Below are positions 1-23,252 of a stretch of DNA of 64,000 nucleotides, in pieces. Every line of letters starts with the position of its first letter. Positions within the stretch are counted from its first letter, which is position 1. Source of the stretch: Takakia lepidozioides. Taxonomy: Eukaryota > Plantae > Bryophyta. The translations under genes and the position numbers were made by a program. The notes under the pieces were generated by a model that searched no databases, had not been told where the DNA came from, and saw only the letters and a program-made list of their open reading frames with translations. The stretch is from the NCBI GenBank assembly GCA_030704615.1, contig CM060733.1:35526001-35590000 (forward strand). The letters are read 5' to 3'.

Positions 1-2249
1 CGATATTGTGAAGGAGTGGCATCTGAAACATTTGCGTGATTGCCCTTGGTATGTGGACCTTCCGCCCGGCTCGCTCGACCCATCCGAGTTTCAATTGAAG
101 CTGGATGCTGAATTCCGACGAAACCGGGCTCCGCTGCCTCCGTTGGGTGCAAAAGAGGCAAAAGCGCTTGCGAACTCCAGGAAAGCGGCAGAGCTTGCTC
201 AGACAGGAATTCAGGAGAAATTGCATGAGAAGAGTAAAGGTCAAAGGAAAAGGACAAGGAAACAGGTGACTGCAGTAACACCCAAAAAGAAGAAAACCAT
301 CGGGGCATGGAGGAGGCGCAGGAGGGGACCCAAGAGAGTGACTCCGACGCCGATTTTGTTCAAGGTCCTGCGACTGCTGTTGCTCCTACCCAGTCACCGG
401 TCGTCCGGGTTCCCAAGTCAGTTCGGAGTGGGACTGGCTCTGCCAAGAAGTTGGCATTTGAGGGCGAGCCTACACGGCGGTATTCGGCGGTGACGTTTAC
501 GCACAGGCCAAAGCTAGAACCTCCAACCATCATCCAATGCGTCAATGAGAGCTTCCTTGACGCTCTCGCTGCCAGGGCGAAGAAGGTGGCACACAACAAG
601 TCTCTGGCGGAGCAGAAGGGGAAAGCCAAGAAGAGGGCTGCCGGTACAGAGCCTAAAGACACCCCTGGTTTTGAAGCCATGATGGAATTCTTCACGGCTG
701 TGAGCACGAATTGCAAGAGCACTCGGGGGGGGTTGAGGTGGAGAGAGCTTGCGACATGATTCTCCTCGACATTCCAGATGGGGAGCTGCTGGAGGGCCTG
801 GATGGTGTGCCCACCTGGAACAGGTTTACTGAGGACTACTGGAAAGCCGGGTTTGGGCTGGCGGGGATGCTTCTGGATGACGGTGGATGTGTGGTTGTCC
901 TTGCCACGAGAGGGAAGACCACAGAGAATGCGGTGGCAAGGTGGACACCGAAAAGTGTCACCCCGGTCCTCCTCAGAAAATGGTTCTGCATCAGTACGCA
1001 GGGGTTGCGAACAGAGGGCCAAAGTGTAAGTTATCAATCTATTGCATTCACTTCATATTGTGGTGTATGTTAAGTAGACCCTGGAATTGATCCCTTCTTT
1101 GTTGGATGTGCAGACATTGGTGTTTGAGGCATATTGCTTTGTGAAGAGAGGGTCTACGTTCAAATTCCGCAACGACGGTCGTCTTGTTGATGCCGCTGTG
1201 GACCCTGTAACCTACGATGTCCTCTACAACTATGTGCCCCACTCTAGTATGCCGAAGGACACAAAGACAGGCAAACCGTGGCGGTACAGCCGGACCCGAA
1301 GCCCTGCTTTCATCCAAACCCTCATGGAGACGTGCTCGGATGTCCAAGGGCGGATTCTGGACCTCACATGCGGCACGGGTAAGCCTTCACGTCCTCAGTT
1401 TGTCCCCTGGCCCCATTGCAATTGCATGCCGCAAGCTATTAACCGCCCGCTTTGTTCCTCAGGTGCTTCAATGTGGGCAGGGACGTTGTCCGACAGGCAT
1501 GTGTTCGCCTTCGAGCCAGATACTGCCCTCCACAACTCGGAACTTGCAGCGGCTGAACGTCTGCCGAAAGAGGAAGAGGCATCCTCGGAGGATGAGGAAA
1601 AATCCGAGAAGGAGCAGGGGGAGGAAGTTGGGATCGAGGCCGAGGAGCCCCGGTTTACGAGTGAGTGGTGGCATTGTAAGTTGCCTCCAGATTTTGTGAG
1701 GCACCTCCCTCCGCTCTCTTATTTCATTGAAAACCCTTTCTGGTTGTGCTGGTATTGACATTCTTCAAGTGGATTTGTTCTTACTGTAGGATGCCAAGTA
1801 CTGCCGGAGGGACGTCTACACCGGAGTTCATGGGCAGGAGGAACGTGCCTTTTTTTGCCAGGGGAGATTTCATGCCTAGTCCAGAAAGGGAGTACATCCT
1901 GCCTACTTATGCTGCCCGGCTTGCTTCGGTGTCCATTAGGAGGTGTTCCGAACGTAGTCGTGTACAGCAGATTTTAGACGAGGCAAGCCTCAAGAAAATG
2001 AAGATGAGGGAGGAGGCAGCAGCTATTAGAGCCCGTCGGGCTCGTAGATTTGTGTTGGATTCTGCTGAGGAAAGTGGGGGAGAAGACGCAGAAGATTCCC
2101 AGGAGGTGAGGTGGACAGTCCCCCAAGGAGAGGACGGGATTTTTGAGAGGCATAGTGGAACTGATGCATCACAGAGCTCGGAGGATGAGGGGGATGAGGG
2201 GGATGAGGAAGAAGGTGGGGCAAGTTCCTCGGAGGGTGTAGGAGAGTAG
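1..2249 (+). CDS. 3' part of an intron-containing gene whose C-terminal region resembles a beta-class DNA amino-methyltransferase (N6_N4_Mtase fold); copy 1, 5' end outside the window
   Basis: Motif IV-like CDMILLDIPDG (~751-783). GT-AG introns at 1026-1113, 1379-1462 and ~1661-1789. Splicing gives PWRYSRTRSPAFIQTLMETCSDVQGRILDLTCGTGASMWAGTLSDRHVFAFEPD, matching the motif X / motif I (SAM-binding) / motif II order of beta-class MTases. Acidic tail to TAG at 2247-2249. Two 1-bp frameshifts (~309, ~730) are absent from the inverted copy. Confidence 0.7.
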
Positions 2250-2414
2250 TGCCCATTCCGGCTATGACAGTTAGAACACACTTGTATAGACGTGGCTTGC
2301 CACAAAATTTGCAATAAAATGTTGCATTTTAAGTCCACTGGTGCCACATTCCAACTTCACATGACCCTATTTCCGTGCCTCCTAACCCTATTTCCGTGGA
2401 CTCACAATGGTCTG

Positions 2415-2500
2415 CTCATGCTTTTTTTTTTTCCGCTCATGCTCATGCCGCTCATGCTCATGCCGCTCATGCTCATGCCGCTCATGAAATAGCAGCCCCC
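2415..2500 (+). repeat. Subterminal CCGCTCATGCTCATG repeats and terminus A
   Basis: Three 15-bp units plus a partial unit immediately inside the terminus. The copy at 26675-26731 has two fewer units. Confidence 0.8.
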
Positions 2501-4864
2501 TTAGAAAGGGGGGCACAAACAGTGTGAGTTGACGCACACTGTTTGGTGCTTCCAACTATGGGGTTTATTGACATGGCATTCTGGCTTGTGTAGCCCATTT
2601 GGACATCCTAAAACAAGCTGAGAGAGGGGCACAAACAATATGCGTTGACGCACACTATTTAATGCTTCCAACTACGGGTATTTTGAACTTGGCACACTGG
2701 CCTCGTGTGGCCCATTTAGACATGAAAAATAGCTAGAAAGGGGGGCACAAACAGTGTGCGTTGACGCACACTGTTTGGTGCTTCTAACTATGGGGTTTTT
2801 TGACATGGCATACTGGCCTTGTGTGGCCCATTTAGACATCAAAAATAGGCTGAGATGGGGGCACAAACAATGTACGTTGACGCACACTGTTTGGTGCTTC
2901 CAACTATGGGGTTTTTTGACATGGCATTCTGGCCCTGTGTGACCCATTTTGAAAACCAAAAACAGGCTAAGAGAGGGGCCGAAATAGTGTGCGTTGACGC
3001 ACACTGTTTGGTGCTTCCAACTATAGGGTTTTTTGACATGGCATACTGGCCTTGTGTGGCTTATTTAGGCATCAATAAACAAGCATAAAGGGGAGCAAAA
3101 AGAGTGTGCTTTGAAGCACACTGTTTGGTGCTCCCAATTAGGGGTTTTTTGAAATGGCATTCTGGCCCTGTGTGGCCCATTTTGAAATCCAAAAACAGGC
3201 TGAGAGAGGGGCACAAACAGTATGCGTTGACGCACACTGTTTGGTGCTTCCAACTATGGGGTTTTTTCACATGGCATACTGGCCCCGTGTGGCTCATTTA
3301 GACATCAATAAACAAGCATGAAGGGGAGCAAAAAGAGTGTGCTTTGAAGCACACTGTTTGGTGCTCCCAATTAGGGGTTTTTTGACATGGCATTCTGGCC
3401 CTGTGTGGCCGATTTTGAAAACCAAAAATAGGCTAAGAGAGGGGAAGAAATAGTGTGCGTTGAGGTACACTGTTTGGTGCTTCCAATTAGGAGTTTTTTG
3501 ACATGGCATTCTGGCCCTGTATGGCCCATTTTGAAATCCAAAAACAGACTGAGAGAGGGGCACTTACAGTATGCATTGACGCACACTGTTTTGTGCTTCC
3601 AACTATGGGTTTTTTTGACATGCCATACTGGCCCTGTGTGGCACATTTAGACATCAATAAACAAGCGTGAAGGGGAGAAAAAACAGTGTGCTTTGAAGCA
3701 CACCGTTTGATGCTCCCAATTAGGGGTTTTTTGACATGGCATTTTGGCCCTGTGTGGCCCATTTTGAAAACCAAAAACTGGCTGAGAGAGGGGCAGAAAC
3801 AGTGTGCATTGACGCACACTGTTTGGAGCATCCAACTATGGGGTTTTTTGACATGGCATACTGGCCCTGTGTGGCTCATTTAGACATCAATAAACAAGCA
3901 TGAAGGGGAGCAAAAACAGTGTGCTTTGAAGCACAATGTTTGGTGCTCCCAATTAGGGGTTTTTTGACATGGCATTTTGGCCATGTGTGGCCTATTTTGC
4001 AAACCAAAAATAGGCTTAAAGAGGGGCACAAACAGTGTGCATTGACGCACATTGTTTGGTGCTTCCAATTATGGGGTTTTTTGACATGGCATACTAGCCC
4101 TGTGTGACTCATCTAGACATCAATAAACAAGCATAAAGGGGAGCAAAAACCGTCTGCTTTGAAGCACATTGTTTGGTACTCCCAATTAGGGATTTTTTGA
4201 CATGGCATTTTGGCCCCGTGTGGCCCATTTTGAAATCAAGAAATAGGCTGAGAGATGGGCACAAACAGTGTGCGTTGACGCACAGTGTTTGGTGCTTCCA
4301 ACTACGGGTGTTTTGAACTTGGCACACTGGCCCTGTGTGGCCCATTTAGACATTAAAAAATAACTAGAAAGGGGGGCACGAACAATGTGCATTGACGCAC
4401 ACTGTTTGGTGCTTCCAACTGTGGGGTTTTTTTACATGGCTTTCATGCCTTGTGTGGCCCATTTGGACATCCTAAAACAGGCTGAGAGAGGGTCACAAAC
4501 AGTGTGCGTTGACGCACACTGTTTGGTGCTTCCAACTATGGGGTTTTTTTACATGACATACTAGCCCTATGTGGCCCATTTAGACATCTAAACAAGCATA
4601 ATGGGGAGCACAAAGAGTGTGCTTTGAAGCACACTGTTTGGTGCTTCCCATTTGGGGTTTTTTGACATGGCATACTGGCCCTGTGTGGCCCATTTGGACA
4701 TAAAAAAACAGGCTAAGAGAGGGGCACAATTTGTGCGCATTGCCGCTCACTCTTTGGTGCTTCCAACTACGAGTGTTTTGAACCTGCTACACTGGCCCTG
4801 TGTGGCACATTTAGACATCAAACATCGTCCATTTTTAAATCAAAAAACAGGCTGAGAGGGGGTG
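2501..4864. repeat. Tandem satellite, ~116-117 bp monomer, ~20 units, two subtypes often alternating (~233-bp higher order)
   Basis: Recurring CAAACAGTGTGCGTTGACGCACACTGTTTGGTGCTTCCAACTATGGGGTTTTTTGACATGGCA.. unit. Spurious ORFs recur at 233-bp spacing (3647/3880; 3453/3686/3919). Confidence 0.95.
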
Positions 4865-6370
4865 TGTAGTGTGAATGCAGGGGAGTGACATTACATTTTG
4901 TCTTACCGCTAAGACCCTGCATCACTACAACGGGAGTGCCCGTTGTACAACTGCAGGAGGGATATATCCCTGCATACAGGTAATTTCATAGGCATACTGT
5001 GCTTATGCTTTGCCAGGATAAAAATGGCTAAGTCATGACCATGCATATTTTCATCCGTAGGATGAACGTTTTCATCCCAGGCGTGTAACCTAGAAACGCG
5101 GGTTGAGGAAAACGAAGAGGAAGATGACGGGCAACTCTTAGCAGCTGCTGCGAGCAGTGGGGTTGGCAGGGCCGTCTGTTTTTGGGAGGTTGTACCTATG
5201 CTATGGGACTCTGCTTGGTTTAGAGAGCAGCATTAGGTGCTTCTGCTTGGTATTCTGTGTAAAGGGAAGCGGTGCCGCTTCTCTCATAGTGATGATCAAT
5301 TCCTGGAGTAGGAGCATGTAAGAAGAGCAGCGCACCACCGCTGTCGCCATTGCCTTGAAGAAAACAATTATGGGCAGATGAGCAAGCAAGGAAAACGGCC
5401 AGCTGCCGGAAGCACAAGGAAGTGAGTTGTGGGCACAATCAATGGAGGGGATGAGGCATGTGAAGTGCTGGCTGGATGGCAACTCAGGTTATCTGTAATC
5501 AAAGCTTATAGCTGCTTTTGTGTCTTCTTACTATAGGACCATGTCAATTCTTAGGGAAGAATTGCACGCATAGAAGGATAGAGTATTTAGTTGGCAAGCC
5601 ACAGGATGTTCCATAGGACGAAGAGGAGCCATCATGGCATGATAAATACTGGAATCAAGACAAGGAGAATAGGTTGAAGTGGCTGCTGACAGGCGATGGT
5701 GAGGTGCCATCTTGGCAGGCAGATCCACCGCTTCGCTGGAGGATAAAACAGATAAGTTCGTAGACTGTGGGCTTCGGTTTTTGGGAGTGGTGACTTAGAA
5801 ATCGTTTTGGTGTGGATTTAGGACTGGCTCTTGGTAGAGGAGAAGGAGGTAGAGATATGTGATGGAGGAAAAAGGTTTTGGAAATGGAATGGAGACTCTG
5901 GACTTCAAACCGGGATAGGGAAAGGATGGATGCACATGATGTTATAGTGTTAGTAGGAGAAATGAGTGGGGGGAGAGACTGCTTGTCACTGAATCAAAAT
6001 GGTCACTGTTTGTCTTCATTCTTGTTCTTTGTTTCAGTGTTATGAACCTGCACACAATGCTGCCGTGGGTATTGATACACTGGAACCAATGTAGACCTAG
6101 CTTGGCTGATTGAAAACACCAGTGAGGGTTAGATAGAACTGTTGAAAACAGAGAAAGGATAATGTGGATGGGGAAGCAACACCGACACTGATTTGGTTTT
6201 TTTTTTGGAACTAATTTCCAGCATGGTCTCAGGGTATGAACAACTGAGGTTCACAGTTGAAGGGAAAAGAGGGTTGTTGGGGTATTTGGTTGAAACCTGT
6301 AGAAAGGCTGAGAGCTGTTTGGGCAATGGCTTCTTTTGGAAAAAGGTAGTGTGAAGGGTTGGTCATTGGC

Positions 6371-6405
<35 letters not shown>

Positions 6406-7099
6406 ATGAATGGGATGGTTATGCCTTGTGTGACCGAGGATGATTTCAAGGCTGGGTGCACTGGATGCCTGGCTGAGTTGTGCATTGCATTGCATGGTAG
6501 ATATGCTGCTGTTGAAGAAGTGAGGAACCTGTAGACCTCAGATTAGAGAGAGAGAGAAAAGGATTTGGGAAGGGAGAGAGCTGCTTAGTATAAGGGGTTG
6601 ATGGGGGATGGCCAATTTGGGGAGATGAGATGAAGAAAACATGAACCCTGAAAGAGACCAGTGGCCCTGCAGTTCATGGCAGATCTGAGCTGCCTCCCTC
6701 TAAATCTGTGTCACCATTACAAAGGGGGCTTCCGACGTGTCACCGCTCAAGGGAGCTTCACATTAAGGGTCGTGTTCAGCGCTGTCATCGGGCTGGTTGC
6801 ATCACATAAAAGATCATGGCAGCACTGTTGGCGCTGTGATCATAGGGCAAGGCTGATGTATAAAAGTAGAACCAAGAGCAAGAACAATTCAAAACTCCCC
6901 ATCCATGTCTTCTCTTCCGCTGCGGCGTGGATGAGGATTGCATGAACTCTGATCACGAACGAACTAAGGGAAACCCACAGCCATGTGAAGATGGTTGGAT
7001 CACTAGAACGTTCCTTCCTTTTGCTTTGACTTCAACTAGGGAGGAGTACAGATTAGAATCACCCAGAAGGGGATTCACGCCCCTTCTTTTCACACTACA
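4865..7099. mobile_element. 2235-bp non-coding insertion with TG..CA termini: solo LTR or non-autonomous TGT-terminated element
   Basis: Begins TGTAGTGTGAA and ends TTCACACTACA (11-bp perfect IR, ~25-bp imperfect). 4-bp direct repeat GGTG at 4861-4864 and 7100-7103. The satellite monomer resumes in register on the other side. Confidence 0.8.
6373..6402. repeat. (GA)15 microsatellite
   Basis: Directly visible. Confidence 0.95.
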
Positions 7100-7512
7100 G
7101 GTGCACAAACAGTGTGCGTTGACGCACCTTGTTTGGTTCTTCCAACTTCGGGTGTTTTCAACTTGGCACACTGGCCTTGTGTGGCCCATTTAGACATCAA
7201 AAAACAACTGGAAAAGGGGGGCACAAAGAGTGTGCACTTACGCACATTGTTTGGTGCTTCCAACAACGGGTGTCTTGAACTTGGCACACTGGCCTTGTGT
7301 GGCACATTTAGACATCAAAAAACAATTAGAAAGGGCGCACAAAAAGTGTGCGTTGACGTACACTGTTTGTTGCTTTCAATTAGGGGTATTTTGAACATGG
7401 CATACTTGCCCTGTGTGGCCCATTTTGAAATCACAAGACGCACAGAGGGGGGCACAAACAGTATGCGTTGCCGCATACTGTTTTGTGCTTTCAACTGCGG
7501 GTGTTTTGAACA
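7100..7512. repeat. Continuation of the ~116-bp satellite (~3.5 more diverged units)
   Basis: Same monomer as 2501-4864; cut mid-monomer at ..GTGTTTTGAACA. Confidence 0.9.
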
Positions 7513-8698
7513 GAGGTTTACTATTTCATGAGCAGAAACCATGTGCCATGAGCCATGAGCCGCATGAGCGGTGAGCCGAAGTCTAAGACACGCGGATTTC
7601 ATGAGCGGACTCCTCCAAATTTGGAAATGCGGCAGATTAAACAAGTATTAAAATAATAGTTTTTTAGGGCACCTTGCCGTTTTTGGAAGTTCCACATCCT
7701 GTAATGCGGCGAAGATATGTCGTCAGTAACAAGATCGCTCATGGTTTTTTAGATCCGCGGTTTTACATGCCTTAACATTGGAATGAAGTTGACCCTTCTG
7801 CCGCGATTGAACCAATAGAGTCTGCAGTACTTCACAATTCTGTCATTTTCGGGTATTCGGCGGGAAAGATTTGCGACTCAACTGGGAAATGCGGTGCCGC
7901 ATTAGGGCTTGCACGTGCGAAATTTCTGGGGAGTTTGGTGTTGGCGACGGTCGGCTCCCTAAAGGCTGGGTGCGACTATCTTGCTATGACGAAGGTCGTA
8001 TCTACCAGTATCTACGACGTTACTTGGAAATGCGGCGCCGCATTTCCTTGCCGGGGGTCGAATGAGGAAAGCAAAGTTTGGGAGAGCAAAAAAATAGGAA
8101 CCCTCCAACAAACAAAAATACAAGCACGTAGAAACAGAAGTGAATGACATAGTATTATCTTAGTTCGAGCAAAACAGGTTATTGGTAGGCAAGACATAAG
8201 TCGGACCTTTCTGTGGCCAGAGTCAGAGCTACTTGCAGCAGTACAGTTCTACTACAACTGAAACTCCGAAAAGGATGGGCATACCATGGTTGGGGACCGC
8301 AAGCCAAGCTCATTGGTCCCCTGGATCCATATTCAGAAGAGTGTGCAGCTCTTGGGGGCTCAACCCTGGTGCATGTATGAAGTGATGAGTTGTGGAATTA
8401 CGCCGGAGTCTCTTTAGGTACACGTAGTACAGATGCTTGCAAGGGCTGTATGATGCCCCCTTGTTCGCCATGATCTGGAAGTCGGTGCAATTGCAGGTGG
8501 GTAATTCTGAAATGGTGATGGTGTACACCTCATTGCGAACAGCTGAGCCTGCCGTGGCCATCTGATACACACGCCCAAAGCCTGGTGGGGGCACTTCTGT
8601 CGAGGTGGAAACTCGAAGATGACATTGCCATCGACTTCGGGAGGCAGATACGTTACCTTCCTGACTGGAAATTTGGCATAGTCGAGAGCAGCCAGCCG
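7513..8698. mobile_element. Putative opposite arm (end B) of the same unclassified element family, truncated
   Basis: Starts GAGGTTTACTATTTCATGAGC, versus end A read inward GGGGGCTGCTATTTCATGAGC. Clustered CATGAGC subterminal motifs (7527-7606). Contains a GGCGCC-centred palindrome like the one in the MTase-gene intron repeats. Confidence 0.55.
8310..8698 (-). pseudogene. SWIM zinc-finger ORF fragment (possible transposase C-terminus)
   Basis: YTITISELPTCNCTDF..SPCKHLYYV fits the SWIM consensus CxCxnCxH. Its 5' part is replaced by gypsy RT sequence at 8699. No DDE core is visible. Confidence 0.65.
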
Positions 8699-9928
8699 GT
8701 ATTGGACACTGTGGCAGACCATGAGATGTACTCATTCATGGATGGCTTCAATGGTTATAATCCAGTGCAAGTGGCAGAAGAAGACCAGGGAAAGACAGCT
8801 TTCATCACAGACTGGGGTGCTTATGCATACAAAGTTATGCCCTTTGGACTTTGTAATGCACCAACAACCTTTCAGAGAGTGATAAGTGAATCTTTTCAGG
8901 AGTATCTGGATGATTTCATACAGATGTTCTTGGATGATTTCAGTGTGTACAGCTCTAAGAATGAGCACTTGCATAAATTGGAGTTATGTTTGGCCAGATG
9001 CAGGATGAGAGGTTTGGGCCTGAATCCAGAAAAGTGTACTTTCTGTGTGAACTCCGGGGTGCTTTTGGGACACATTGTGTGTAAGAGGGGACTTCTTGTG
9101 GATCCCAGAAAGACAGAGGCCATTAAAGCCTCTCCACCACCAGTAAATGTTAAGAGTTGAAGGAGATTCCTTGGACAAACCAGTTATTACAGAAGATTTG
9201 TCAGAAGGTATGCATAGATAGCAGCACCATTGAGCAAGCTTCTGAAGAAAGATGCAGTGTTTGCATGGACAGCTGAATGTCAACAGGCGTTTGAGGAACT
9301 TACATTGTCAGTAACAACTACACCGGTGCTGATTAACCCTCACTGGCATGTAGTATTTCATGTTCACTGTGATGCCTCAGGAGAAGCGTTGGGAGCAGTG
9401 TTAGCCCAAAATGTTACAGGAAATATAGATTCACCTGTGTACTATGCTAGCAGGTTGATGAACAGTGCTGAAAGGAACTAAAGCACAACTGAAAGAGAAG
9501 CACTGGCAATGATTTATGCAGTCAAGAAATTCAGGCATTACCTATTGGGAAGGAAGTTTATGTTTTATGTGGATCACCAAGCTCTGATATATCTGGTGAA
9601 CAAACCTTTGATAAGTGGAAGAATAGCAAGGTGGTTGATAATCTTGCACGAGTTTGAGTTCGAGGTTGTTTATAAGCCTGGACGTTTGCATCTTGTGGCA
9701 GATCACTTGTCACGCCTATCAACAGGAGAGCCAGCCATAGGAGTAGACGACCAATTACCTGATGCGAGTTTATTTGCAGTGGAGGTGCAGGGAAGTGCAG
9801 AAGACTGGTTAGATTGGCAGTGGCCAATCAGATACTACCTTACTCATGGTCAATGCCCACCTAGTTATGGGAAGGAGCAGAGGAAGAGAATTGCTATCAA
9901 GGCTTTACCTTATACTATGGTAGGGGGC
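8699..9928 (+). mobile_element. Older Ty3/gypsy copy, part 1 (RT-RNase H; 5'-truncated, nonsense codons)
   Basis: DGFNGYN, MPFGLCNAP, FLDDF, CDAS, DHQAL motifs. Collinear with the inner element's pol. Stops at 9158, 9207 and 9479. Interrupted at YTMVG by the nested insertion. Confidence 0.92.
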
Positions 9929-10855
9929 TGTCGCGCGGCTTTTACTCACCCATCCCTTCGCTATCCGAGGCGGAAACTCCAAGATAGAAGAGTTGGAAAT
10001 CTCTAAGTACTCAGCCCGCTCAGAACAATCAGTCATGACCTACAGCTAGTGTATCATGGGGGTGTTTCCTATTTGTTTTCCTTTCCGCATTCATGTTAGC
10101 TAGCTACCTTACTATTGATAATTGAGTATCAGTTTGCTCATCAACTCATCCATTCATTCCACAGCTTCACTCAGATCTCTCTACACAGTGTGATTGTATC
10201 GTATAAGTATCAGATTATGATTTATCAGGTATCAGGCCGAAGCCATTGTGTCTCTAATCTCCTCTACAATATCACTACAGCTTTGCATATAACAAGCATC
10301 TACTAATCATCTCTCCTCCCACCGTGCTCTCCATGCTGGCTTTCGTTCTTGCTCTCCGCCCGATCCCTTCTCCTCCATGACCAAGAATCCCCCCCCGGAG
10401 TGCTTCCAAGAATAATCCTCCTCATCTCAGTCCTTGCTTCTCCCTTTATCTTCCTCCCCGTGGCTCTAACCGTTTCCCTCACTAACCGTCGTCCGTGAAC
10501 TAACATGTTCTATTTGCAGGTGTTGTTCCCCACAGTCGTTCCCTGTCCTGCTCTCCGTTCCCTATGGTCGTGACAGCTGTGTCAAGCTGTGACTGGCTGT
10601 GTGAAACTGTGACGGGCTGTGTCGGCTGTGACGGCTGTGTCGACTGTGACGGGCTGTGTTGGCTGTGTCGGCTGTGATGGGCTGTGTTGGCTGTGTCGGC
10701 TGTGATGGGCTGTGTCGACTGTGACGACTGTGTCACCCCCCTCTACAGTGCGCTGCTGTCACCCCTAAAGCTCATGTTGGTCTCAGTCTGTGCAAAAATT
10801 AAGGGTACTCCTCAGATCCCGTAAAAATGTCTAAGTCCCTGGCAGTCCTCTAACA
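9929..10855 (-). repeat. 3' LTR (927 bp)
   Basis: Direct repeat of 22282-23247, preceded on the minus strand by the PPT. Confidence 0.97.
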
Positions 10856-10858
10856 TTA

Positions 10859-10872
10859 CCCCTTCCCCTCTC
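10859..10872 (-). other. Polypurine tract GAGAGGGGAAGGGG
   Basis: Purine run 3 nt upstream of the 3' LTR on the minus strand. Confidence 0.9.
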
Positions 10873-10893
10873 AAAAAGCCGTGTCCTCACGGT

Positions 10894-13137
10894 TTACTGT
10901 TTGGGATTAGCAAACCTTTGTGAGTGAGCACCCTTCTGACGTTGAGAGTCTCGTGAAGGACTTTGTGTGCGAGCCCGAGGTCTGCCACTGGTTGACGGAG
11001 ATGTTTGAACACTACCCGGATAAGTGATGCCTTCTGGAGGCTGATATCGAGGTAACCTTTCAGGCATAGGAGACCCCCGTCGCTTCTTCTCTGCCATCTG
11101 AATTGCATAGTCTTCTCCCATGTCAAAAGAATCCGCTGAAGAAACAGTTGTATCAGAATCCTCATCGCCTCTCAGGTGTTTTAATTGTCGAACTTTTTGT
11201 GGAATCCTCTGGGGCATACAATGTTGTCCTACCATGTCTGGAAGTTTATATTTTAAAACTTGGTATAAACGCTGAACTGCAAAATTGGTGAAGACACTGA
11301 ACTCCTTGTCTGTCCAGGTGAGTGGGGTACCAATGACTTGTGACTTGTTCAAGTATTTCCATGCCACATGTGCCTTATAGAAAATATCATCAATGCCGAA
11401 TTTCTGTGTTGACAAATTGTTCCAGGCTGCCTGAAACCATGAACGAATTTGAGAATCGTTTTGCATCATAACTTTTGCCTCATATAGGTACATATGAGGT
11501 GGCACTGAAGGTAAGACCCAATGATCCCCACTGGAATAACTCAGAAAGCGCGCTTGCATCTTTTGCTGCTCAATGTGATAACGTACCAGAAAACAAGCAG
11601 CGTAGTATAATCCACATCCCATGACAATACTCGCTACCTCCTTGGTCTTGGTATAAATGAATCCATGTACAACTTGGAAGGCAATTAATTCTCTCAACAT
11701 TGTACCTGCCTCATGCCAGTATTGTGCAAAGTGATGATTTTCAATTGGTCGATTGTTCGGAAGAACTTTAGTCCTCATTGCCATTGGCAGCCAAATGCGC
11801 ATGATTTGGTAGTAATGTGCAAATGACTGCGGAGGACTAAATTCTTTCCAAGCCAAATCCAACATGATGGGAATTTGGTTGAAGGGCAGAATCATAGCCC
11901 TACTGTACTCCCTTGCAGCTGGAGTTTTAGGTGGGTTAAAAGCAGCATTGCCCCATACCTCAGACTGTGGTGGCTGTGGTGTGGCTGTAGTAACAACAGG
12001 GTCAGCTACTGGCACAGTGACTTGTTGTGGTGTTGGTGGCAGTTGCTCTTGTATCATTGGCATCTCCTGCACCTCTTGTGAAGATGACTGGAAAGCTAAA
12101 GTTCTTGCTTTTAAATAAGAAGCCATTAGCTGTTCCTCAGGTACACAGACTCTTTTGTCGATATTTGAAGTGAGGTCCTCCACTTGAGTCTGCAGGCCGT
12201 CTACATCCTCCTGTAACTCCGCTATTCTACTATAGACATTGTCTATAGTAGTTGTAGCAATGTTCTGCACTTGCAGCCTGAGTTCATTCATCTCGTTTTG
12301 GGTGAGCTTTCGTGGTGCTTTGCCCTCCACTGGCCCTTGTGCTAACCAGACCTGCATAAGGTGGTTATCCACCAAGTTGCTTGTGGTTCCTCTGAGAGTG
12401 TGCTCTTCTCTTTGTTTGTACACATCTAACTGCTGTTGTAAAGCCTCCATGCGCTTCGCATGAGGTTCAACCAAATTCGCATAGGCAGCAGCCAGATTAT
12501 TGGCTTCCTTCCAAGCTTTATTAGCCACAGAGAGTTCATTTCTATTGGCCATGATTGTTTGTTGCAACTCCAAGATGTGCCTCTCTTGGTCAGCTTCAAC
12601 CTGCCTGTATTGCTTGAAAGTATCCTCATTGCGACAGATTGTATTCTTCGTATCGACGATGAGTTTCACTTGCTCAACATTCTCTGCCTCTGCCTTCATA
12701 CATCTTTCCGCTTGACTGTTTATTTCTATTGTAGATTGGTCCAGCATAGTTGTGAGTGTAGCACATTGAATGGCCATTCTGTCATGCACTGTCTGCAACT
12801 CCGTATGTAGTGCATTCACTTGTTGCAACTTGCTTTCATGCTTCACCTGCATTTGGTATAGCTGTTGCTTATGTGCTTCATGCAATTGGTCTTGCGTGAG
12901 ACCTGCCTCAATCAATTGTTCCTTGGCCAATTGCAAAGCTGCTTCTGTATTCTCCAAGTCTTGCTGCATCTTGAGAGTGACCTTCTCATCGACCTTGTTT
13001 GCACACTCAGTGGCTAGTCGAGCCTCAAACTCCTTCATGAGTTCCTCTCTCAAGGCTGTCAATTGGGTAATTGGAACATGGGATTTGACATAAGTCCCCA
13101 ACAAATTAAGTGTCCTGCCTATGGAACTCATAAGCAT
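10894..13137 (-). CDS. C-terminal part of the retrotransposon extra ORF (long coiled coil plus unknown globular region), 747 aa
   Basis: E/Q/L-rich heptad-like N-half. Homologous pieces at ~26635-26676 and 36955-37855. Same frame as pol. Confidence 0.8.
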   Translation of the reverse strand: MLMSSIGRTLNLLGTYVKSHVPITQLTALREELMKEFEARLATECANKVDEKVTLKMQQDLENTEAALQLAKEQLIEAGLTQDQLHEAHKQQLYQMQVKHESKLQQVNALHTELQTVHDRMAIQCATLTTMLDQSTIEINSQAERCMKAEAENVEQVKLIVDTKNTICRNEDTFKQYRQVEADQERHILELQQTIMANRNELSVANKAWKEANNLAAAYANLVEPHAKRMEALQQQLDVYKQREEHTLRGTTSNLVDNHLMQVWLAQGPVEGKAPRKLTQNEMNELRLQVQNIATTTIDNVYSRIAELQEDVDGLQTQVEDLTSNIDKRVCVPEEQLMASYLKARTLAFQSSSQEVQEMPMIQEQLPPTPQQVTVPVADPVVTTATPQPPQSEVWGNAAFNPPKTPAAREYSRAMILPFNQIPIMLDLAWKEFSPPQSFAHYYQIMRIWLPMAMRTKVLPNNRPIENHHFAQYWHEAGTMLRELIAFQVVHGFIYTKTKEVASIVMGCGLYYAACFLVRYHIEQQKMQARFLSYSSGDHWVLPSVPPHMYLYEAKVMMQNDSQIRSWFQAAWNNLSTQKFGIDDIFYKAHVAWKYLNKSQVIGTPLTWTDKEFSVFTNFAVQRLYQVLKYKLPDMVGQHCMPQRIPQKVRQLKHLRGDEDSDTTVSSADSFDMGEDYAIQMAEKKRRGSPMPERLPRYQPPEGITYPGSVQTSPSTSGRPRARTQSPSRDSQRQKGAHSQRFANPKQ

Positions 13138-13590
13138 TGCCTGTTGAGGGTCATCATGGTGAGCTTGCTACTGTTCTCCTTCTCCCTGATCCTCAACAGT
13201 GTGATGTCTCACGAACCACTCAGGCCATTGTCCCACCAGATTTTCTTCCTAAACCACTTCATCCATCACCGGTGCTGCAGTGTTTTGACATTCTACCTGT
13301 GGTACCTCCGGCACAGGTGTGTGTATTATATGTATCCCAGTATTTCCCGTGGGCAACTGTTGCACCTCTGGAATCTCCGTCTCCTTGACCAGACCAGAAT
13401 ATTCATAGAAAATGTCTCCCTTCTCAATTTCTGCCACTATCTGTTCTGTAGTTGGAATATCTAACCCTTCTTTTTCCAAATCAATTATTTCTGGTTGAGC
13501 TGCATGGACAACTTGTAACCTTGTGACAAGCCGATCAGCTGGCTGTGATGGTTGTGATACTGAAGTAACTTCCTCCTCCCTCTCTGAAGG

Positions 13591-16500
13591 TCATGCTTCC
13601 AGTAATAGCAGTTCTCTGTGCTGCTGTGCCCCTTCCTGCACATGAGCTTGGGAAACATTATCATGCGGAATCCGTGAAGCCAGTGGATCCGCCACTACAT
13701 TCTTTCCCCACCTCTGTCTCTTATTCTCGGGTTGCCCTGCCAGTCCACCCTCACTGTGTGAAGAGCCTTGCTCTTCCATTGCAGTGATTTCTGGCTCAAA
13801 CACTCCCATCTCCTTTCTTTCTCGCGCATCTAGGATGCGAGAATCAAGAATTATTTGTGCAATGATTGGGCCAGACACTATGATAGGAGACTTTGCGGTA
13901 GTACCCTGTAATCTTTTCATCTCCTCTACCAGTGCGTTGTACATTATGTCCGCCCATTCTACCTCTTCTCCTCTCAGGGCTTTGAGTATTTCCTCTGTAA
14001 AGGATCTGCTCAAGTACTGTTGGTTCTGTTTCATGGCAAACATAACGTTCAATACCTGGCCTACCTCCTTTAGCCCTGGGTACACAGCCTTGGTACAAGC
14101 GTAACCCTGAGTTTTAAAGAAACTCCCTTCTTGGAATAAGTCCCCTATTTGCAGTCTTGCCCTGTGTTCCTCCACATGCACTTGACCTGCTGGCAATTGA
14201 AACAATTGCTGTAGGTATAGGGGAGTAATTTCTAATTCCACTCCCTTCACTGTTGTTGCTCCTGTCTTAGGCTCCATGTTCTGCAAGAATTGTAACATGT
14301 ACTGTCGATGGTGCAATGTCCAATCTTTGTTTTGCAATCCTTGCAATCTCAGTTCCTTCAGTAACTGTACTGCCTGTGGAGTAGCAATCGTTTGTTTCTG
14401 CAGGATTGTGGTGCTCTTCACCCTGATTTCCTCCATTCCTCTCACTCTCTTCATTCTAGACCCACAGAAATGTTTTGGCTGTAACAACTGAAGAAATGCC
14501 TGTAGTGCACACAGCATAAACGTATGGTTGCCACAAAAAGCTATGGGTAATTTCTTGTAAGCCTGTGGGGCTTGCAAGCATCGTTCAAGAGAAAAGATCT
14601 GCTCTGTTCTTTCGTCCCTATGCCACTGTGTAAGTAGTATTGCGAGTGTATAGTCTGTTAGTTCCTCCATAGCTTCAAAGCTATAACATTGATGGTTTGT
14701 CCCGTCGAGACGCCCGTTACTCAGAACGACGCCGCCTCTTGCGCTTAATTTCTCTCCATTTTCTTGATCGTTTCTCTGGCTTTCTATTGGCTGTAACCGC
14801 GGTGACTGGATTTTAGATTTAATTTTATTTAGTGGACTTTCCCTGCTGGATTGTCCACTAGGATCACACATGTGACAAGAATTTCTCTTTTCTGTACTTG
14901 CTGTTCGTTCCGTTCCTCTTTTTCCGTATTCATTAATGGGCCCGCCATTCATCCGAATTGACGCGCTAAGTTGGTACTTTGACGGCCATTCTTGTCCTCT
15001 TTCTTGATGACACCTGTTCTTGCACTTCCTTCTCAGCTGTGTGTCACGCCCTGACTTCCACGTGTCTATTTTTAAACTGGTTTTTGTCCTTTCTTCAATC
15101 GGCCATTTTCCTGAAGTTAATGTGCGTCCACCTGTCACTGATTCTATGGATTGTATAACCCTAGTAGGCTGTGTTGAACTGTGATAGGATGTGTTATACT
15201 GTGGTGCGCTATGATAGGCTGTGATGCACTGTGGTAAGCTATGATAGGCTGTGACACGCTGTGGTAGGTTGTGATAGGCTGTGTTTCGCCTTGATGGGCT
15301 GTGATAGGCTGTGTCACGTCGTGATGGGCTGTGATAGTCTGTGTTTCGCCTTGATGGGCTGTGATAGGCTGTGTCACGTCGTGATGGGCTGTGATAGTCT
15401 GTGTTTCGCCTTGATGGGCTGTGATAGGCTGTGTTTCGCCTTGATGGGCTGTGATAGGCTGTGTCACGTTGTGATGGGCTGTGATAAGCTGTGTTACGCC
15501 TTGATGGGCTGTGATAGGCTGTGTCACGCTTGCTCTGCCCGCCCTGGTCATATATGCTCGGTCTAGCGACAAGTGCTCCATACTCTGTTGGTAACACTGG
15601 CGCAGCCCGTGACTGCTCTTGCGTTTCAACATGCAAATCATGCTGCAATGGTTTGTCATGGATACCACTGTACCCCTTCAACTTATTGGCATTGACTCTT
15701 CCCAGCATTTCTTTGTTAATGGTTTGTAACATGGCTGTGTTGTTATCATACATCTTTTGTATGACATAGGGTCCTTTCCATGGTGATTTAAGCTTAGAAG
15801 CTTTAATCTTTCCCTTTTTCTGCAACCATAAAACCAAATCTCCCGTCTTAAAAGTTTTTAACTTGCCTTCATCAAATTGTTCCTTCCTCTTCATCTGAGA
15901 TCTGGTCATATTATCAACTGCATCAGCACGTACTTCTTCCACATGGTATAATTCATGTTTCCTGACCTTAATGGAATCTTGCAATTCCATTCTCTTTCCC
16001 CATTCCGTTCTCATGGTAGGTAACAGGAATTCCACTGGAAGTAAGGCTTCCATACCATAAACTAATTGGAATGGTGTATACTTTGTGGTGACTTTATATG
16101 AAGTCCTGTATGACCACAAAGCTGTCAGCAGCTTTGTATCCCAATCCGTTCTGTTTGCATTGACTATCTTAGCCAAGATAGTACATAGTATTTTTTTGGT
16201 AGCCTCTGCCTGCCCATTACCCTGTGGGTAATATGTTGTACTCTTCCTATGCACAATCATGAACTCTTTAGTCAACAACTCAATGGTCTCATTAATGAAG
16301 TGACTTCCCTGATCACTGATAAACTCTAAGGGACAACCAAATCGTGTAAGTATGTTCTCATACAGGAACCTTGCTGTGGACTTGGCTGTGTTGTCCCTCA
16401 AAGCTTTAGCTTCCACCCACTTCGTAGTATAATCAGTGGCTGTAATTATGTACCTGTTCCGTGTATTCTTGGCTGGTGGGTTAATTGGTCCAACAAAGTC

Positions 16501-18228
16501 TAGTCCCCATTTCTGAAATGGTTCCGTAGGCATTGTAGGATGCAAAGACATTTTCCCAGATCTCTGCAAAGGTCCCAGCCTCTGACATTCATTACAACTT
16601 TGACAATACTTGTGTACATCTTTGAATAAAGTAGGCCACCAGTAACCTGCGAGTAGTATCTTTCTACTGGTAGTCTCTTCTCCAAAATGACCTCCAGCCA
16701 CTCCTTTATGAACTTCCTCCAAAACTTTATTTACTTCATGGTGGTACAAGCATCGTTTTAGTACTCCATCAGGTCCTAGCTTATACATTCTGCTCCCTAC
16801 CATAGTGTAAGGTAGAGCTTTGATAGCGATTCTCTTCCTCTGCTCCTTACCATAACTAGGTGGGCACTGACCATGAGTAAGGCAGTATCTGATTGGCCAC
16901 TGCCAATCTAACCATTCATCGGCACTTCCTTGCACCTCCATTACAAATAAACTCGCATCAGGTAACTGATCGTCCACTCCTGTGGCGGCCTCTCCTGTTG
17001 TTAGTCGTGACAAAGGATCTGCCACAAGATGCAAACGGCCAGGCTTGTAAATAACTTCAAACTCAAACTCATGCAGGATTATTAACCACCTCGCTATCCT
17101 TCCATTTATCAAAGGTTTGTTCACCAGATATATCAGAGCCTGGTGATCCACATAAAACATAAACTTTCTTCCCAATAGGTAATGCCTGAATTTCTTGACT
17201 GCATAAATCATTGCCAATGCTTCTCTTTCCGTTGTGCTATAGTTCCTTTCAGCACTGTTCATCAACCTGCTAGCATAGTACACAGGTGAATCTATATTTC
17301 CTGTAACATTCTGGGCTAACACCGCTCCCAACGCTTCTCCTGACGCATCACAATGAACATGAAATACTACATGCCAGTGAGGGTTAATCAGCACAGGTGT
17401 AGTTGTTACTGACAGTGTAAGTTCCTCAAACGCCTGTTGACATTCAGCTGTCCAGGCAAACACTGCATCTTTCTTCAGAAGCTTGCTCAATGGTGCTGCT
17501 ATTTGTGCATACCTTTTGACAAATCTTCTGTAATAACTGGTTTGCCCAAGGAATCTCCTTAGACTCTTAACATTCACTGGTGGTGGAGAGGCTTTAATGG
17601 CCTCTGTCTTCCTGGGATCCACAAGAAGTCCCCTCTTACACACAATATGTCCCAGAAGCACCCCTGAGTTCACACAGAAAGTACACTTCTCTGGATTCAG
17701 GCCCAGACCTCTCATCCTGCATCTGGCCAAGCATAACTCCAATTTATGCAAGTGCTCATTCTTAGAGCTGTACACACTGAAATCATCCAAGAACACCTGC
17801 ATGAAATCATCCAGATACTCATGAAAAGATTCACTTATCACTCTCTGAAAGGTCGCTGGTGCATTACAAAGTCCAAAGGGCATGACTTTGTATGCATAAG
17901 CACCCCAGTCTGTGATGAAAGCTGTTTTTCCTTGGTCTCCTTCTGCCACTTGTACTTGATTATAACCACTGAAGCCATCCATGAATGAGTACATCTCATG
18001 GCCTGCCACAGTGTCCAATACTGCTTCTGTGAATGGCAAAGGAAAAGGATCTTTCTTCGTACAAGCATTCAGCTTCTTGTAGTTCACACATACTCTTAGT
18101 TTACCATTCTTCTTGGGAACTATAACAATGGGTGACAACCAAGTTGTATACTCTATTGGGTATATAAACTTAGCCTCAGCCAACTTCTTGATCTCTTCTC
18201 CAACCTTCTGTGCGTAGTTGGGATTCAT
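13591..18228 (-). CDS. Pol (RT-RNase H-integrase) continuing in frame into a repeat linker and an extra-ORF domain
   Basis: RT FLDDF; RNase H CDAS/EREAL/DHQAL; integrase HHCC (H..GGH..CQSCNEC), WGLDF, SDQGSHF, PQGNGQAE, WKGPY. The ORF runs ~690 aa past the integrase end. Confidence 0.95.
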   Translation of the reverse strand: MNPNYAQKVGEEIKKLAEAKFIYPIEYTTWLSPIVIVPKKNGKLRVCVNYKKLNACTKKDPFPLPFTEAVLDTVAGHEMYSFMDGFSGYNQVQVAEGDQGKTAFITDWGAYAYKVMPFGLCNAPATFQRVISESFHEYLDDFMQVFLDDFSVYSSKNEHLHKLELCLARCRMRGLGLNPEKCTFCVNSGVLLGHIVCKRGLLVDPRKTEAIKASPPPVNVKSLRRFLGQTSYYRRFVKRYAQIAAPLSKLLKKDAVFAWTAECQQAFEELTLSVTTTPVLINPHWHVVFHVHCDASGEALGAVLAQNVTGNIDSPVYYASRLMNSAERNYSTTEREALAMIYAVKKFRHYLLGRKFMFYVDHQALIYLVNKPLINGRIARWLIILHEFEFEVIYKPGRLHLVADPLSRLTTGEAATGVDDQLPDASLFVMEVQGSADEWLDWQWPIRYCLTHGQCPPSYGKEQRKRIAIKALPYTMVGSRMYKLGPDGVLKRCLYHHEVNKVLEEVHKGVAGGHFGEETTSRKILLAGYWWPTLFKDVHKYCQSCNECQRLGPLQRSGKMSLHPTMPTEPFQKWGLDFVGPINPPAKNTRNRYIITATDYTTKWVEAKALRDNTAKSTARFLYENILTRFGCPLEFISDQGSHFINETIELLTKEFMIVHRKSTTYYPQGNGQAEATKKILCTILAKIVNANRTDWDTKLLTALWSYRTSYKVTTKYTPFQLVYGMEALLPVEFLLPTMRTEWGKRMELQDSIKVRKHELYHVEEVRADAVDNMTRSQMKRKEQFDEGKLKTFKTGDLVLWLQKKGKIKASKLKSPWKGPYVIQKMYDNNTAMLQTINKEMLGRVNANKLKGYSGIHDKPLQHDLHVETQEQSRAAPVLPTEYGALVARPSIYDQGGQSKRDTAYHSPSRRNTAYHSPSQRDTAYHSPSRRNTAYHSPSRRNTDYHSPSRRDTAYHSPSRRNTDYHSPSRRDTAYHSPSRRNTAYHNLPQRVTAYHSLPQCITAYHSAPQYNTSYHSSTQPTRVIQSIESVTGGRTLTSGKWPIEERTKTSLKIDTWKSGRDTQLRRKCKNRCHQERGQEWPSKYQLSASIRMNGGPINEYGKRGTERTASTEKRNSCHMCDPSGQSSRESPLNKIKSKIQSPRLQPIESQRNDQENGEKLSARGGVVLSNGRLDGTNHQCYSFEAMEELTDYTLAILLTQWHRDERTEQIFSLERCLQAPQAYKKLPIAFCGNHTFMLCALQAFLQLLQPKHFCGSRMKRVRGMEEIRVKSTTILQKQTIATPQAVQLLKELRLQGLQNKDWTLHHRQYMLQFLQNMEPKTGATTVKGVELEITPLYLQQLFQLPAGQVHVEEHRARLQIGDLFQEGSFFKTQGYACTKAVYPGLKEVGQVLNVMFAMKQNQQYLSRSFTEEILKALRGEEVEWADIMYNALVEEMKRLQGTTAKSPIIVSGPIIAQIILDSRILDARERKEMGVFEPEITAMEEQGSSHSEGGLAGQPENKRQRWGKNVVADPLASRIPHDNVSQAHVQEGAQQHRELLLLEA
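15175..15530 (-). repeat. 30-bp coding tandem repeat (TAYHSPSRR[N/D]) x ~12
   Basis: Unit CCTTGATGGGCTGTGATAGGCTGTGTTTCG and variants; the reading frame is preserved. Confidence 0.9.
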
Positions 18229-21200
18229 TTGTACCTCGCCTGCTTGATTGGTACTGACCCTGGTTCTAGTTCAATCTTATGCTGACAGACTTCAGGTGGT
18301 ATTCCTTTTAGATCTTCATAGCTCCAAGCAAATACATCTCTGTATTTGATGAACAAGCTCTTAGCTTCTTCAAAGAATTTTGGCTCCAAATCAGCTCCTA
18401 CTTTCACCATCCTCGGTTCCTCTTTAGTTCCCACATTCACTTCCCTCACCTGTTCATCAGCTGTGATTGTCCAACCAGTCACCACTTCATCCTGTAAGCT
18501 CACAGTGGCTGGTTCCTCTAGGATTTCCATTTCTCCTTCTCTTTCTTCATAGAAATGTGATGGGTAACTGCTGGTTTCCTCTTCAGTTGGTGTTGCTGTC
18601 ACTACACCACAGCAGATACCTCTTAAACAACTTAGGCTTTCCAGCCGCATCTCTGCAACTTGCTCCCACTCTGGGTGTGCAGCAAACAGGGTAGCTTCCT
18701 GCTCCTCATCCAGTCCTTCTCTCCAGTCATACTCTCTGACTCCTCGAGGTCTTCTCGTAGCAGGTAATCTACTAGATTTCTTTGTGGTAATTTGTATCTC
18801 GTGTATCCCATTATGCACGGTTAGTAACTGAGAATTCCAGTCATGGAATACCCTGGCCTGCTTCAGCCACGGACTTCCCAATAATAAGGAGTAAGCCTCC
18901 ATGACTTCATCCATTTTCAACACAGTTACTGTGATCATAAAGATCATCTTTTGTATCTGTATCTTAACTCCTCTTATTAATCCCAATGGCTGTACACTTC
19001 TTTGATCTGCCATTGTTACTGTAAATGGGGCTGGTTTCATGTTACTTAGACCAAGCTTCTTTCTCAATTGGTCTGTCATGATATTTACTCCATAACCTCC
19101 ATCTATCAGTACATCAGTTAGCTCTGTGCTTCCAATTTTCAATTGGATTACTGGCATAGAATCATCAAAGTCCATGACTGTTTCTCGCCCTTCCGGCTTC
19201 ACATTATAACTGGTAACCTTGCTGTTCAGGTCTGTGTTTCCTGTCTCCTGGGCAATTCGATTGATTGCTTGATACAGCTTGTGCCTACAATAAGGTGCCA
19301 CAGCCAATAGCTGTCCAATGGTAATCTCTGCTTTGGTCTGGCATATTACTTCAGCCAAAGTCTCTTCATTACTTTTCATGTCCGCATCTTCTTTCTTCCT
19401 TTCCTTCTCCCTCACTTCTTCTTCTCCATCAGAATCAGAGGAATCTGCCACAGGAATATCAATACTCTTCTGCATTTCCCTTATGGTATCTGCCACTTCC
19501 TTGTGCAGTTCCTTCTCCTCTCTCCAAGCTTCATCATCTTCAGGCATATCACTGCCACCTTCATTATCATCTTCTTCCTCTACTACTGGAGGTATTAGTT
19601 TGGCTTTACTTCTTGTTACTATCATTGTACTTACTTCTGGTACAACACATGGCCTAACCATGTGAGCTGCCACCACTGGGCCCTCATTCACAGGAGCTCT
19701 CATCTCATTCTGGTGTCTAATCCAGAATGAATAGGCTGCCTTGTGATGTCCGGGCTGATTACAATAGTAACACAGTTCTTCACCATTGGGTCCTCGCCCT
19801 TGGTCTACTCTTGGATTATTTCTGTAATCCTGATTCCCGGGCTGGTAATTCCCCCTTGGATTACCCTGATAGTTGCCTCTGGAATTCCCTTGGTAATTCC
19901 CTCTTGAATTACCTCTCCCTTCCATGCCATTGTTATAACCACCAGACCTACCATAGTGGTCCTGATCATTGTTTCTTCTTGGCTGGGGCTGCACCTGATG
20001 CACCCTTACTTGCCTAGGTTCTCTTGCAACTGTCCTTCTGTTGTAGTAACAATTCTCAGTAGAATGGTTATCCATTTTACAGATAGTACAGTGTTTCTCC
20101 TTCATGTGGCATTCTGTGGTGGTATGGCCTTCATTCTGGCACTTTGCACACCATACACCCTTCCTCCAATGTGTTGCAGCCTCTGTGGCATACTTCTTCA
20201 AGATTTCTTCCAATCTTTTCTCATAGTTATCCCTCTTCAATTTCTCCTTTCTCTTACTCTTCCTTTTTAGTTCTTGCTCTTCTTCTTCATCTGACTCATC
20301 CTCAGAGTCCTCATCATCCCTTTTCTCTCTCCTGAGCATTCCCAATTGCTCAATCCTGTTTGCAGTTTCAAATGCCTCCTCCACTGTATTATGGGGTAAC
20401 ATATCCACTTTCTTTTGCAACTCTGGTCTTAGTCCACTCACAAACCAAGTCTTCTGTAAACCGGGTGCTGGTACTGCAGCCAGCTTTTTCATCATCAATT
20501 CCATCTTTTCCATATACTCCTCAACAGTTTCATGCTTCTTTTGCTTTAACTGTTGTAAACTTCCATACACTTCATCCTCAGTTTTACTTGTCCTGAACCT
20601 ATTTCGAAATGCTGTATTCAAGCCATTCCAGGTTAGGAAATGATTATCAGGGAATCTTGCATACCATTCACTTGCTTTCTTTATAAGTGAACAAGGAAAC
20701 AATCTCATCTTGGCATCCTCGCCATTCTCATTGTTCACTATACACATGTGCTCAAATTGGCTAATGTGTACATCGGGATCCCCTTTTCCTGAATATATTG
20801 GAAAAGGTGGTTTTGCCCGTGTTGGTTGTAACGCCATTTGTGGCCCTACCTTCTGCCCACTGACAGGTGCCGGCACCCTTGCTGGTGCTGGTCCTTCTGG
20901 ACCTGTTGTTTTTGTGGTGGATCTTCCACCAAGTGGTGGCCCTTGAGCACTCCCTGCTTCCGGCCCCACGATATTCACAGTATTCCCAGCTTCAGTTGCA
21001 CTACTTTCCACACTCCCTGTCCCCCCAGAGCCAGATCCAGGCAACCCGCCTGATCCCCCTGAGCCGACACCTTCGTTGGCCTGTGATCCAAGTGCTCCAC
21101 TTGATCCAGGTCCAACGGGTTGGGATGTCCTGGTTGTAGTCTCAACCTCAGCTGTTGGGTCTACTTCTTCATACTCTTCCTCTTCCAATTTCTTCTCTCT

Positions 21201-21668: not shown

Positions 21669-21693
21669 GTCCCATGTCTTTCATTTCTTTTTT

Positions 21694-23247: not shown

Positions 23248-23252
23248 GGGGC

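Follow-up and report, generated by a model that had tools for sequence, protein, structure and literature searches.

The assembly of the bryophyte Takakia lepidozioides (GCA_030704615.1) contains, on contig CM060733.1, the stretch of 64,000 nucleotides which was analysed here and is called the window (positions 35,526,001 to 35,590,000 of the forward strand). Three 21-bp termini of two kinds lie in it: end A at 2480-2500 (minus strand, pointing left into the element) and again at 26675-26695 (plus strand, inserted in an older Gypsy element), and end B at 7513-7533 (plus strand, pointing right into the element). Behind A lies a gene with ParB-like and methyltransferase-like parts, and behind B a fragment of a SWIM zinc-finger gene. 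Both kinds of end are sharp boundaries of a high-copy repeat and have short imperfect ends of the terminal inverted repeat (TIR) kind and subterminal repeats of the heptamer CATGAGC. There is a fair probability that they are the two imperfect 21-bp TIRs of one large multi-gene cut-and-paste transposon family of this land plant.

Termini and their flanks

Read inward, the ends begin with GGG or GAG and the A and B 21-mers agree at 17 of 21 bases, the A 21-mer being identical at 2500 and 26675; the binomial chance of at least 17 agreements in 21 is about 2e-7 at p = 0.26. Within them stands the 13-mer CTATTTCATGAGC at 2480-2492 (minus), 7521-7533 (plus) and 26683-26695 (plus), that is, three times in the window against a mean of 0.10 in 100 shuffles, none of which reached three. 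No other site in the window comes within five mismatches of either 21-mer, and the A and B arms do not align beyond base 21. The CATGAGC cluster of the first A copy (2414-2486, minus strand) holds 8 exact heptamers and is 30 bp longer than that of the second, and the cluster of end B (7527-7606, plus strand) holds 5 exact heptamers and 2 variants. Counted from the ends, there are 8 exact heptamers within 90 bp of the A end of copy 1 (A1), 4 within 60 bp of that of copy 2 (A2) and 5 within 95 bp of B, together with two variants of 1-2 mismatches and one reversed heptamer at B; the orientation is equal behind all three ends. An earlier note on this DNA had described matching 21-bp termini at 2500, 26675 and 7513, clustered heptamers inside each of them and sharp cuts against unrelated sequence, and all of this holds, the 21-mers being as it gave them, the A flanks differing between the copies and the satellite stopping at B. 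A degenerate 21-mer scan of Joint Genome Institute (JGI) metagenomes gave 7 loci, none of which had the window's interior or heptamer clusters, and these were treated as chance.

The A arm is present in two near-identical copies. Positions 1-2456 are the reverse complement of 26689-29144 at 99.7% identity (BLAST, about 2.46 kb), with differences of 2 substitutions, 6 single-base indels and one 30-bp heptamer block. The outer flanks are unlike, namely a 116-bp satellite from 2501 and an old Gypsy element up to 26674, a homolog of which elsewhere in the window continues at that point without interruption. Because the same A interior has different sequence outside, the element must extend leftward from 2500 and rightward from 26675. 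Copy 1 (1-2500, plus strand) leaves the window at the left edge and includes the 3' exons of the methyltransferase-like gene, with the stop codon at 2247-2249. Copy 2 is placed at 26675-32858, of which 26675-29144 is confirmed by copy 1 and the remainder is assigned from the continuing gene, and it stops at an assembly gap (32859-33358). The old Gypsy element is picked up again at about 36953, roughly 800 bp further along its homologous sequence than the A2 site, so the far flank of copy 2 lies in or beyond the gap. The near-identity of A1 and A2 suggests recent movement; polishing of collapsed repeats could contribute to it.

The B arm (7513-8698) is an older, diverged copy, which is cut at 8698/8699 and joined to the inside of a Gypsy reverse transcriptase (RT) gene. 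On its other side, the satellite alignments end at 7507-7512, directly before end B. The stretch 7488-8760, which includes 62 bases of Gypsy, was matched by 6,056 public contigs in run X1, 3,870 in X3, 2,859 in X2 and 82 in X6 (X1-X3 are one sample, possibly the source of the assembly, and X6 is from another study). The summed contig depth of X3, which is not a copy number and goes up to 208,623 in other satellite bins of the stretch of satellite and B to which the X3 contigs were compared, rises from 5,072 at 7495-7504 to 314,156 at 7515-7524. One 94-nt X3 contig runs across the B junction and is identical to 7447-7540; only 28 of its letters fall within B, fewer than the 31 asked of a bridging contig. 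What characterizes a TIR transposon, one terminus against unrelated flanks and multiple copies, was found in A at 2500 and 26675 and in the boundary and abundance of B. The window's B copy is judged to be older than A1 and A2 because, among the rows listed, it has many near-fixed differences from the bulk of contigs, whereas A1 and A2 are near-identical. One X6 contig diverges from the window sequence behind 8696, and none of the 24 loose-end rows listed for the contigs gives flank letters at 7513.

A 22-bp perfect palindrome lies in the B arm at 8026-8047, with an imperfect copy at 7885-7903. Many X3 contigs join the palindromes at 7885-7903 and 8021-8047 through differing intervening letters, and other repeats of the genome seem to carry this palindrome. 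In one contig 8046 leads back to 7512, which may reflect the insertion of a B end at a palindrome of this kind.

The region between A1 and B (2501-7512) is flank and consists of the 116-bp satellite in about 24 units, split by an insert resembling a solo long terminal repeat (LTR). The interval of 2480-7533, which the earlier note had assigned to the element, had to be given up, as it is mostly flank, a spacer between two outward-facing ends. The 13-mers at 2480 and 7533 do stand inverted around it and might bound a 5-kb non-autonomous element with a satellite interior. However, this is refuted by copy 2, in which the A 21-mer (26675) again has the gene on its inner side but Gypsy in place of the satellite; the heptamer clusters are outside 2480-7533, and the X3 depth rises, not falls, past 7513. 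Such an element has next to no probability. It is also very improbable that the ends or the duplication of A are assembly artefacts. Most of the differences between A1 and A2 are single-base indels within runs, frameshifts occur in copy 2 close to the gap, and contig alignment covered the B junction, not the A junctions, all of which would suit an artefact; but A1 and A2 differ also by the 30-bp heptamer block and have clean, unlike flanks, and the 94-nt contig crosses the B junction as described.

Genes behind the ends

The spliced gene with ParB-like and N6/N4 methyltransferase-like parts (26896-31900, minus strand) has an uncertain 5' limit. In reading order, its 3' part shows DIPDG at the position of motif IV (28362-28376), then motif I as LDLTCGTG (27764-27787) and then VFAFE. 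Beta-class amino-methyltransferases have motif IV ahead of motif I, and both this order and a motif I for binding of S-adenosylmethionine (SAM), which characterize that class (PF01555), are present here; judged from its sequence, the 3' part is a beta-order N6/N4 DNA-methyltransferase-like domain. The Atlas gave N6_N4_Mtase as top matches of the motif-I part (0.91-0.92), and all 10 best family matches were concordant. With the motif-IV exon, phmmer found 15 relatives at E<=1e-3, and those named among the 10 clusters examined were from the fern Adiantum nelumboides and the moss Ceratodon purpureus. The relative P0016 covers both motif exons (tblastn E 1e-30), and P0011 has a weak PF01555 match (E 0.084).

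The catalytic consensus of motif IV is (D/N/S)PP(Y/F/W). It was found in none of the 16 aligned rows, an aromatic fourth residue (DLPF) was found in 3 of them, and the window has DIPD. The methyltransferase-like part is probably inactive as an enzyme, and its degenerate motif IV makes a role in binding more likely than enzymatic activity.

The ParB-like part is seen in WDVNHRL at 31484-31504, which we take to be a ParB-type motif (DG(x)HR type), in a stretch (31900-31340) with several frameshifts. The earlier note had named a ParB-methyltransferase gene running towards A; the methyltransferase-like part and the direction are borne out, and ParB comes down to the motif, with no hidden Markov model match. 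What weighs against the assignments made for this gene is that the methyltransferase exons had no significant match in Pfam, PHROGs or NCBIfam (best E 0.066), and the ParB-like stretch had no match in the same three. The predicted model of P0016 is of low confidence (pLDDT 52) and gave no clear fold assignment, with no Foldseek match at E<=1e-3 and a best VIA Z of 7.2, which is below noise. A sequence search of the PDB gave no match for the exon (profile best E 0.72, DpnA E 1.1), and Rfam gave no match. Word-based protein searches, which covered longer proteins only and are weak evidence, found nothing for the motif-I exons or for the ParB-like and SWIM frames.

An array of eight 95-bp units at 29272-30033, each an imperfect palindrome centred on GGCGCC (z -5.45), probably lies in an intron of the methyltransferase-like gene. 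Three unrelated repeats have the word AAAATG(G/T)CTAAGTC in common: it stands at 5021 in the solo-LTR-like insert, at 10824 and 23216 in the Gypsy LTR ends, and within 29275-29941 in the 95-bp array. All three may carry it as a site for one host factor, or the array could have originated from an LTR end.

The SWIM zinc-finger gene is a 3' fragment (8310-8698, minus strand) with CxC at 8478-8495 and CxH at 8433-8441. Its frame is broken near 8603, and contigs have loose ends at 8603/8604 in three of the four runs. The Pfam SWIM match (E 7e-4, 19.5 bits) is just below the cut-off of 19.6, the Atlas places the fragment with SWIM proteins (score 0.94), and its predicted fold is of low confidence. 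A SWIM open reading frame (ORF) towards B had been noted earlier, and its direction and its finger are right; the ORF, however, is only a broken 3' fragment joined to Gypsy.

This ORF could be the C-terminus of a MULE-type transposase, and the whole a short-TIR Mutator-like element with the methyltransferase-like gene as a second, divergent ORF, which would be a sub-case of the proposed transposon family and not exclusive of it. The SWIM finger sits near the C-terminus of its ORF, the upstream part of which is deleted in the B copy, and a SWIM finger, antisense accessory ORFs and TIRs of as little as 14 bp are known from many groups of plant MULEs (PMC6446971; this and the other sources are cited from the portions available). 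On the other hand, no MULE or DDE domain was found by Pfam in the 130 codons present of the SWIM gene, and the closest Atlas clusters are stand-alone SWIM proteins of 96-109 amino acids, a result biased by query length. A MULE-type origin of the ORF is considered unlikely.

Pairing, superfamily and surroundings

It is likely that A and B pair as the ends of one element. The pairing is favoured because of the 17/21 identity, the common heptamer, the genes each pointing to their end and the match of GGCGCC palindromes. The methyltransferase-like gene reads towards A and the SWIM fragment towards B, as in a two-armed element. A 14-mer of the B palindrome matches (one mismatch) only B and the A-side array, which is a weak link. 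Against the pairing, no copy with both ends, no target-site duplication (TSD) and no transposase were seen in the window, and BLAST found no B-like sequence in copy 2, up to or behind the gap. Furthermore, the B copy is diverged at many near-fixed sites, while A1 and A2 are near-identical, and 11 14-mers, at 5 places, are common to the interiors of B and A2, compared with 0-6 in 9 control stretches, the palindrome link between the arms being marginal. Among the 7 + 11 rows listed for the X3 contigs on the satellite and B, there is no partner junction of copy 1, and the joints are satellite-to-satellite.

The ends could instead belong to two sister families with a common transposase lineage, the SWIM and methyltransferase-like genes being on different elements, each of which would have a second end of its own. 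The divergence of B beside the near-identity of A1 and A2, the lack of alignment beyond base 21 and the absence of a physical A-B link in what was seen would agree with this, as would two X3 contigs that join 7533 to places further in, with a short side of 21 letters, and so hint at further subfamilies, although such short joints are unreliable. However, a single element commonly has asymmetric imperfect ends with subterminal motifs in common (as Sola2 does, PMC3627910), both genes point to their ends, and a similar GGCGCC palindrome is in both arms, the last being weak. Two sister families are regarded as somewhat unlikely.

In the preferred reading, that of one element with A and B as its ends, the layout would be B, the SWIM gene, a middle outside the view, the methyltransferase-like gene and A. 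A DDE transposase, from the element's middle or supplied in trans, would bind the CATGAGC heptamers and the 21-bp ends, and, by analogy with other TIR elements, excision would take place at the terminal G and insertion with a short TSD. The ParB-like part would probably recognise the GGCGCC-centred palindromes of its own element, a role like that proposed for Plavaka PAG3 (10.1101/2025.02.11.637652), and the methyltransferase-like part would probably be a non-catalytic base- or SAM-binding module. The chances are even that the ParB-methyltransferase-like protein is a self-recognising anti-silencing accessory rather than a transposase.

GRG termini are the rule for Sola2, and they also occur in MULEs. 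The earlier note had taken GRG to recall Sola2 and SWIM to recall MULE or Zisupton; both features are present, but each is common to several superfamilies, so they do not classify the element. It was correct that the TSD and the superfamily cannot be fixed in the window, in which copy 1 leaves at the edge, copy 2 enters the gap and the B copy is truncated. A Sola-type element (4-bp TSD) is our tentative best guess and is favoured because of the short imperfect TIRs starting with G and the ParB-methyltransferase precedent. If A and B pair, they form a short imperfect TIR (12-26 bp) starting with G as in Sola2, which is not diagnostic. The three 4-base flanks (CTAA, TTGG and AACA) have no common target word, and what weighs against Sola is that none of the three fits the AWWT target of amoebozoan Sola2. 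Sola2-type DDD transposase motifs had no match in the visible element sequence, the middle of the element lying outside the window, and the termini are unlike those of Sola1-1_Ec32. The MULE type (8-11-bp TSD), which would suit the SWIM finger, is the next candidate by name but rather unlikely, and another or an unclassified superfamily is possible.

Other superfamilies were considered and rejected. Kolobok has RR termini as seen here, but its TTAA is in none of the three flanks. For PIF/Harbinger, the flanks end in TAA, TGG and ACA, so that TNA occurs in one of three and ANT in none. CMCT (EnSpm/CACTA, Plavaka and Transib) has CA..TG, while the termini start with GG or GA; the Kyakuja pattern fails on CA..TG likewise, which excludes Kyakuja only and not Zisupton (8-bp TSD with TIRs).

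As for the surroundings, the satellite of 2501-7512 has a two-unit higher-order period of 233 bp, and each unit has a palindrome with 14-bp arms (z -5.0). Termini of the A/B family cut it off at either visible end. The insert in the satellite is a 2.2-kb TG..CA sequence (4865-7099) with inverted ends and a 4-bp GGTG duplication, and looks like a solo LTR. A young Gypsy element (9929-23247, minus strand) with LTRs 95% alike, a 5-bp GGGGC duplication, gag, pol and a third ORF of 747 amino acids belonging to no Pfam family is nested in an older relative (8699-9928, 23248-26674 and about 36953-37852). Host genes on the minus strand are a BAHD acyltransferase gene within 40651-42360 (PF02458, E 1e-57) and a GANP/SAC3-like gene within 50720-60200 (PF16769, E 6e-6); together with the fern and moss relatives of the methyltransferase-like gene, they by themselves indicate a land plant, probably a seed-free one. 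Further repeats are the 3' fragment of a long interspersed nuclear element (LINE) with a zf-RVT domain (44108-45445) and a short dispersed repeat at 43084-43286 and 47346-47625 (two to three copies, 77-92%), possibly a remnant of a miniature inverted-repeat transposable element (MITE).

Comparison with known systems

Like the Takakia element, Sola2 elements have large cargo genes, arms that are asymmetric, and short imperfect TIRs of 12-26 bp with a G at the start (PMC3627910, and Sola2-1_Ec32 in PMC12477816), but amoebozoan Sola2 targets AT-rich AWWT, the three Takakia flanks are not AWWT, and no Sola2 transposase is in view. MULE/MuDR elements including VANDAL resemble it in the SWIM finger, the short or degenerate TIRs and, if the proposed role of the cargo is right, an accessory anti-silencing gene, in their case VANC (PMC6446971); however, their 8-11-bp TSD and DDE domain were not seen here, and the cargo has a putative prokaryote-type methyltransferase fold and is not VANC or PMD. 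MpDN4MT1a/b of Marchantia are, likewise, prokaryote-type beta-class amino-methyltransferases of a seed-free plant (10.1101/2021.02.12.428880). Compared by description, these are host genes with an intact TSPPY and shown N4-methylcytosine (4mC) activity, whereas the Takakia protein has DIPD and lies in a repeat.

The Plavaka (EnSpm/CMCT) giants of the red alga Bostrychia, which carry PAG2/PAG3, have inverted-repeat arrays beside ParB genes, and the Bostrychia cargo moves between the superfamilies Mutator, Zisupton and Plavaka (10.1101/2025.02.11.637652). The Takakia element is like them in its ParB-like accessory gene with tandem inverted-repeat arrays, and a PF01555 methylase is among the Plavaka cargo. 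In Plavaka, however, ParB is fused to a 2-oxoglutarate (2OG) oxygenase and the methylase to SET, and the CMCT termini are CA..TG (PMC12730594), while the Takakia termini are G.

A literature search gave no description of such elements in land plants, which Repbase or Iyer et al. 2011 might already cover, and the available portion of PMC4738411 has no land-plant clade of this kind. We regard the Takakia element as real and as a land-plant family that is itself undescribed, although its kind is known, and that is only partly resolved. A much wider reading is that it is a giant transposon, abundant and recently active in seed-free land plants, whose transposase belongs to an undescribed lineage and whose prokaryote-derived ParB-pseudomethyltransferase would read parS-like palindromes in its own two arms, so that a bacterial partition-style self-recognition would be reused against plant silencing; it could then be a vehicle for N4/N6 methyltransferase genes in fern and bryophyte genomes. 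This is rather improbable. What the locus offers is a methyltransferase-like gene beside a defined terminus in two near-identical copies, and thereby a 21-mer handle for whole elements, the TSD and the transposase.

A close precedent is Sola1-1_Ec32 of Ectocarpus, in which a ParB-methyltransferase gene lies opposite the transposase; green and red algae are cited too (PMC12477816). It is also a large TIR transposon with a ParB-like and N4C/N6A methyltransferase accessory, which is proposed to bind and modify its own sequence, the Takakia protein being likened to it by description and not by sequence. Sola1-1_Ec32 is from a brown alga and has AACCG..CGGTT termini, a 282-bp TIR, a 4-bp TSD and a known transposase, unlike the Takakia element, which is from a land plant and has 21-bp GRG ends, heptamer clusters, a SWIM gene, a degenerate catalytic motif and no transposase in view. 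If the pairing of A and B is true, the algal class of the 'self-modifying accessory protein' extends to land plants, apparently in a non-catalytic form. That a giant TIR transposon can carry a ParB-methyltransferase accessory gene is, going by the available portion of PMC12477816, already published for Ectocarpus. What the Takakia locus adds is the termini and the SWIM arm, a catalytic motif that is degenerate, and activity in a land plant that is likely to be recent.

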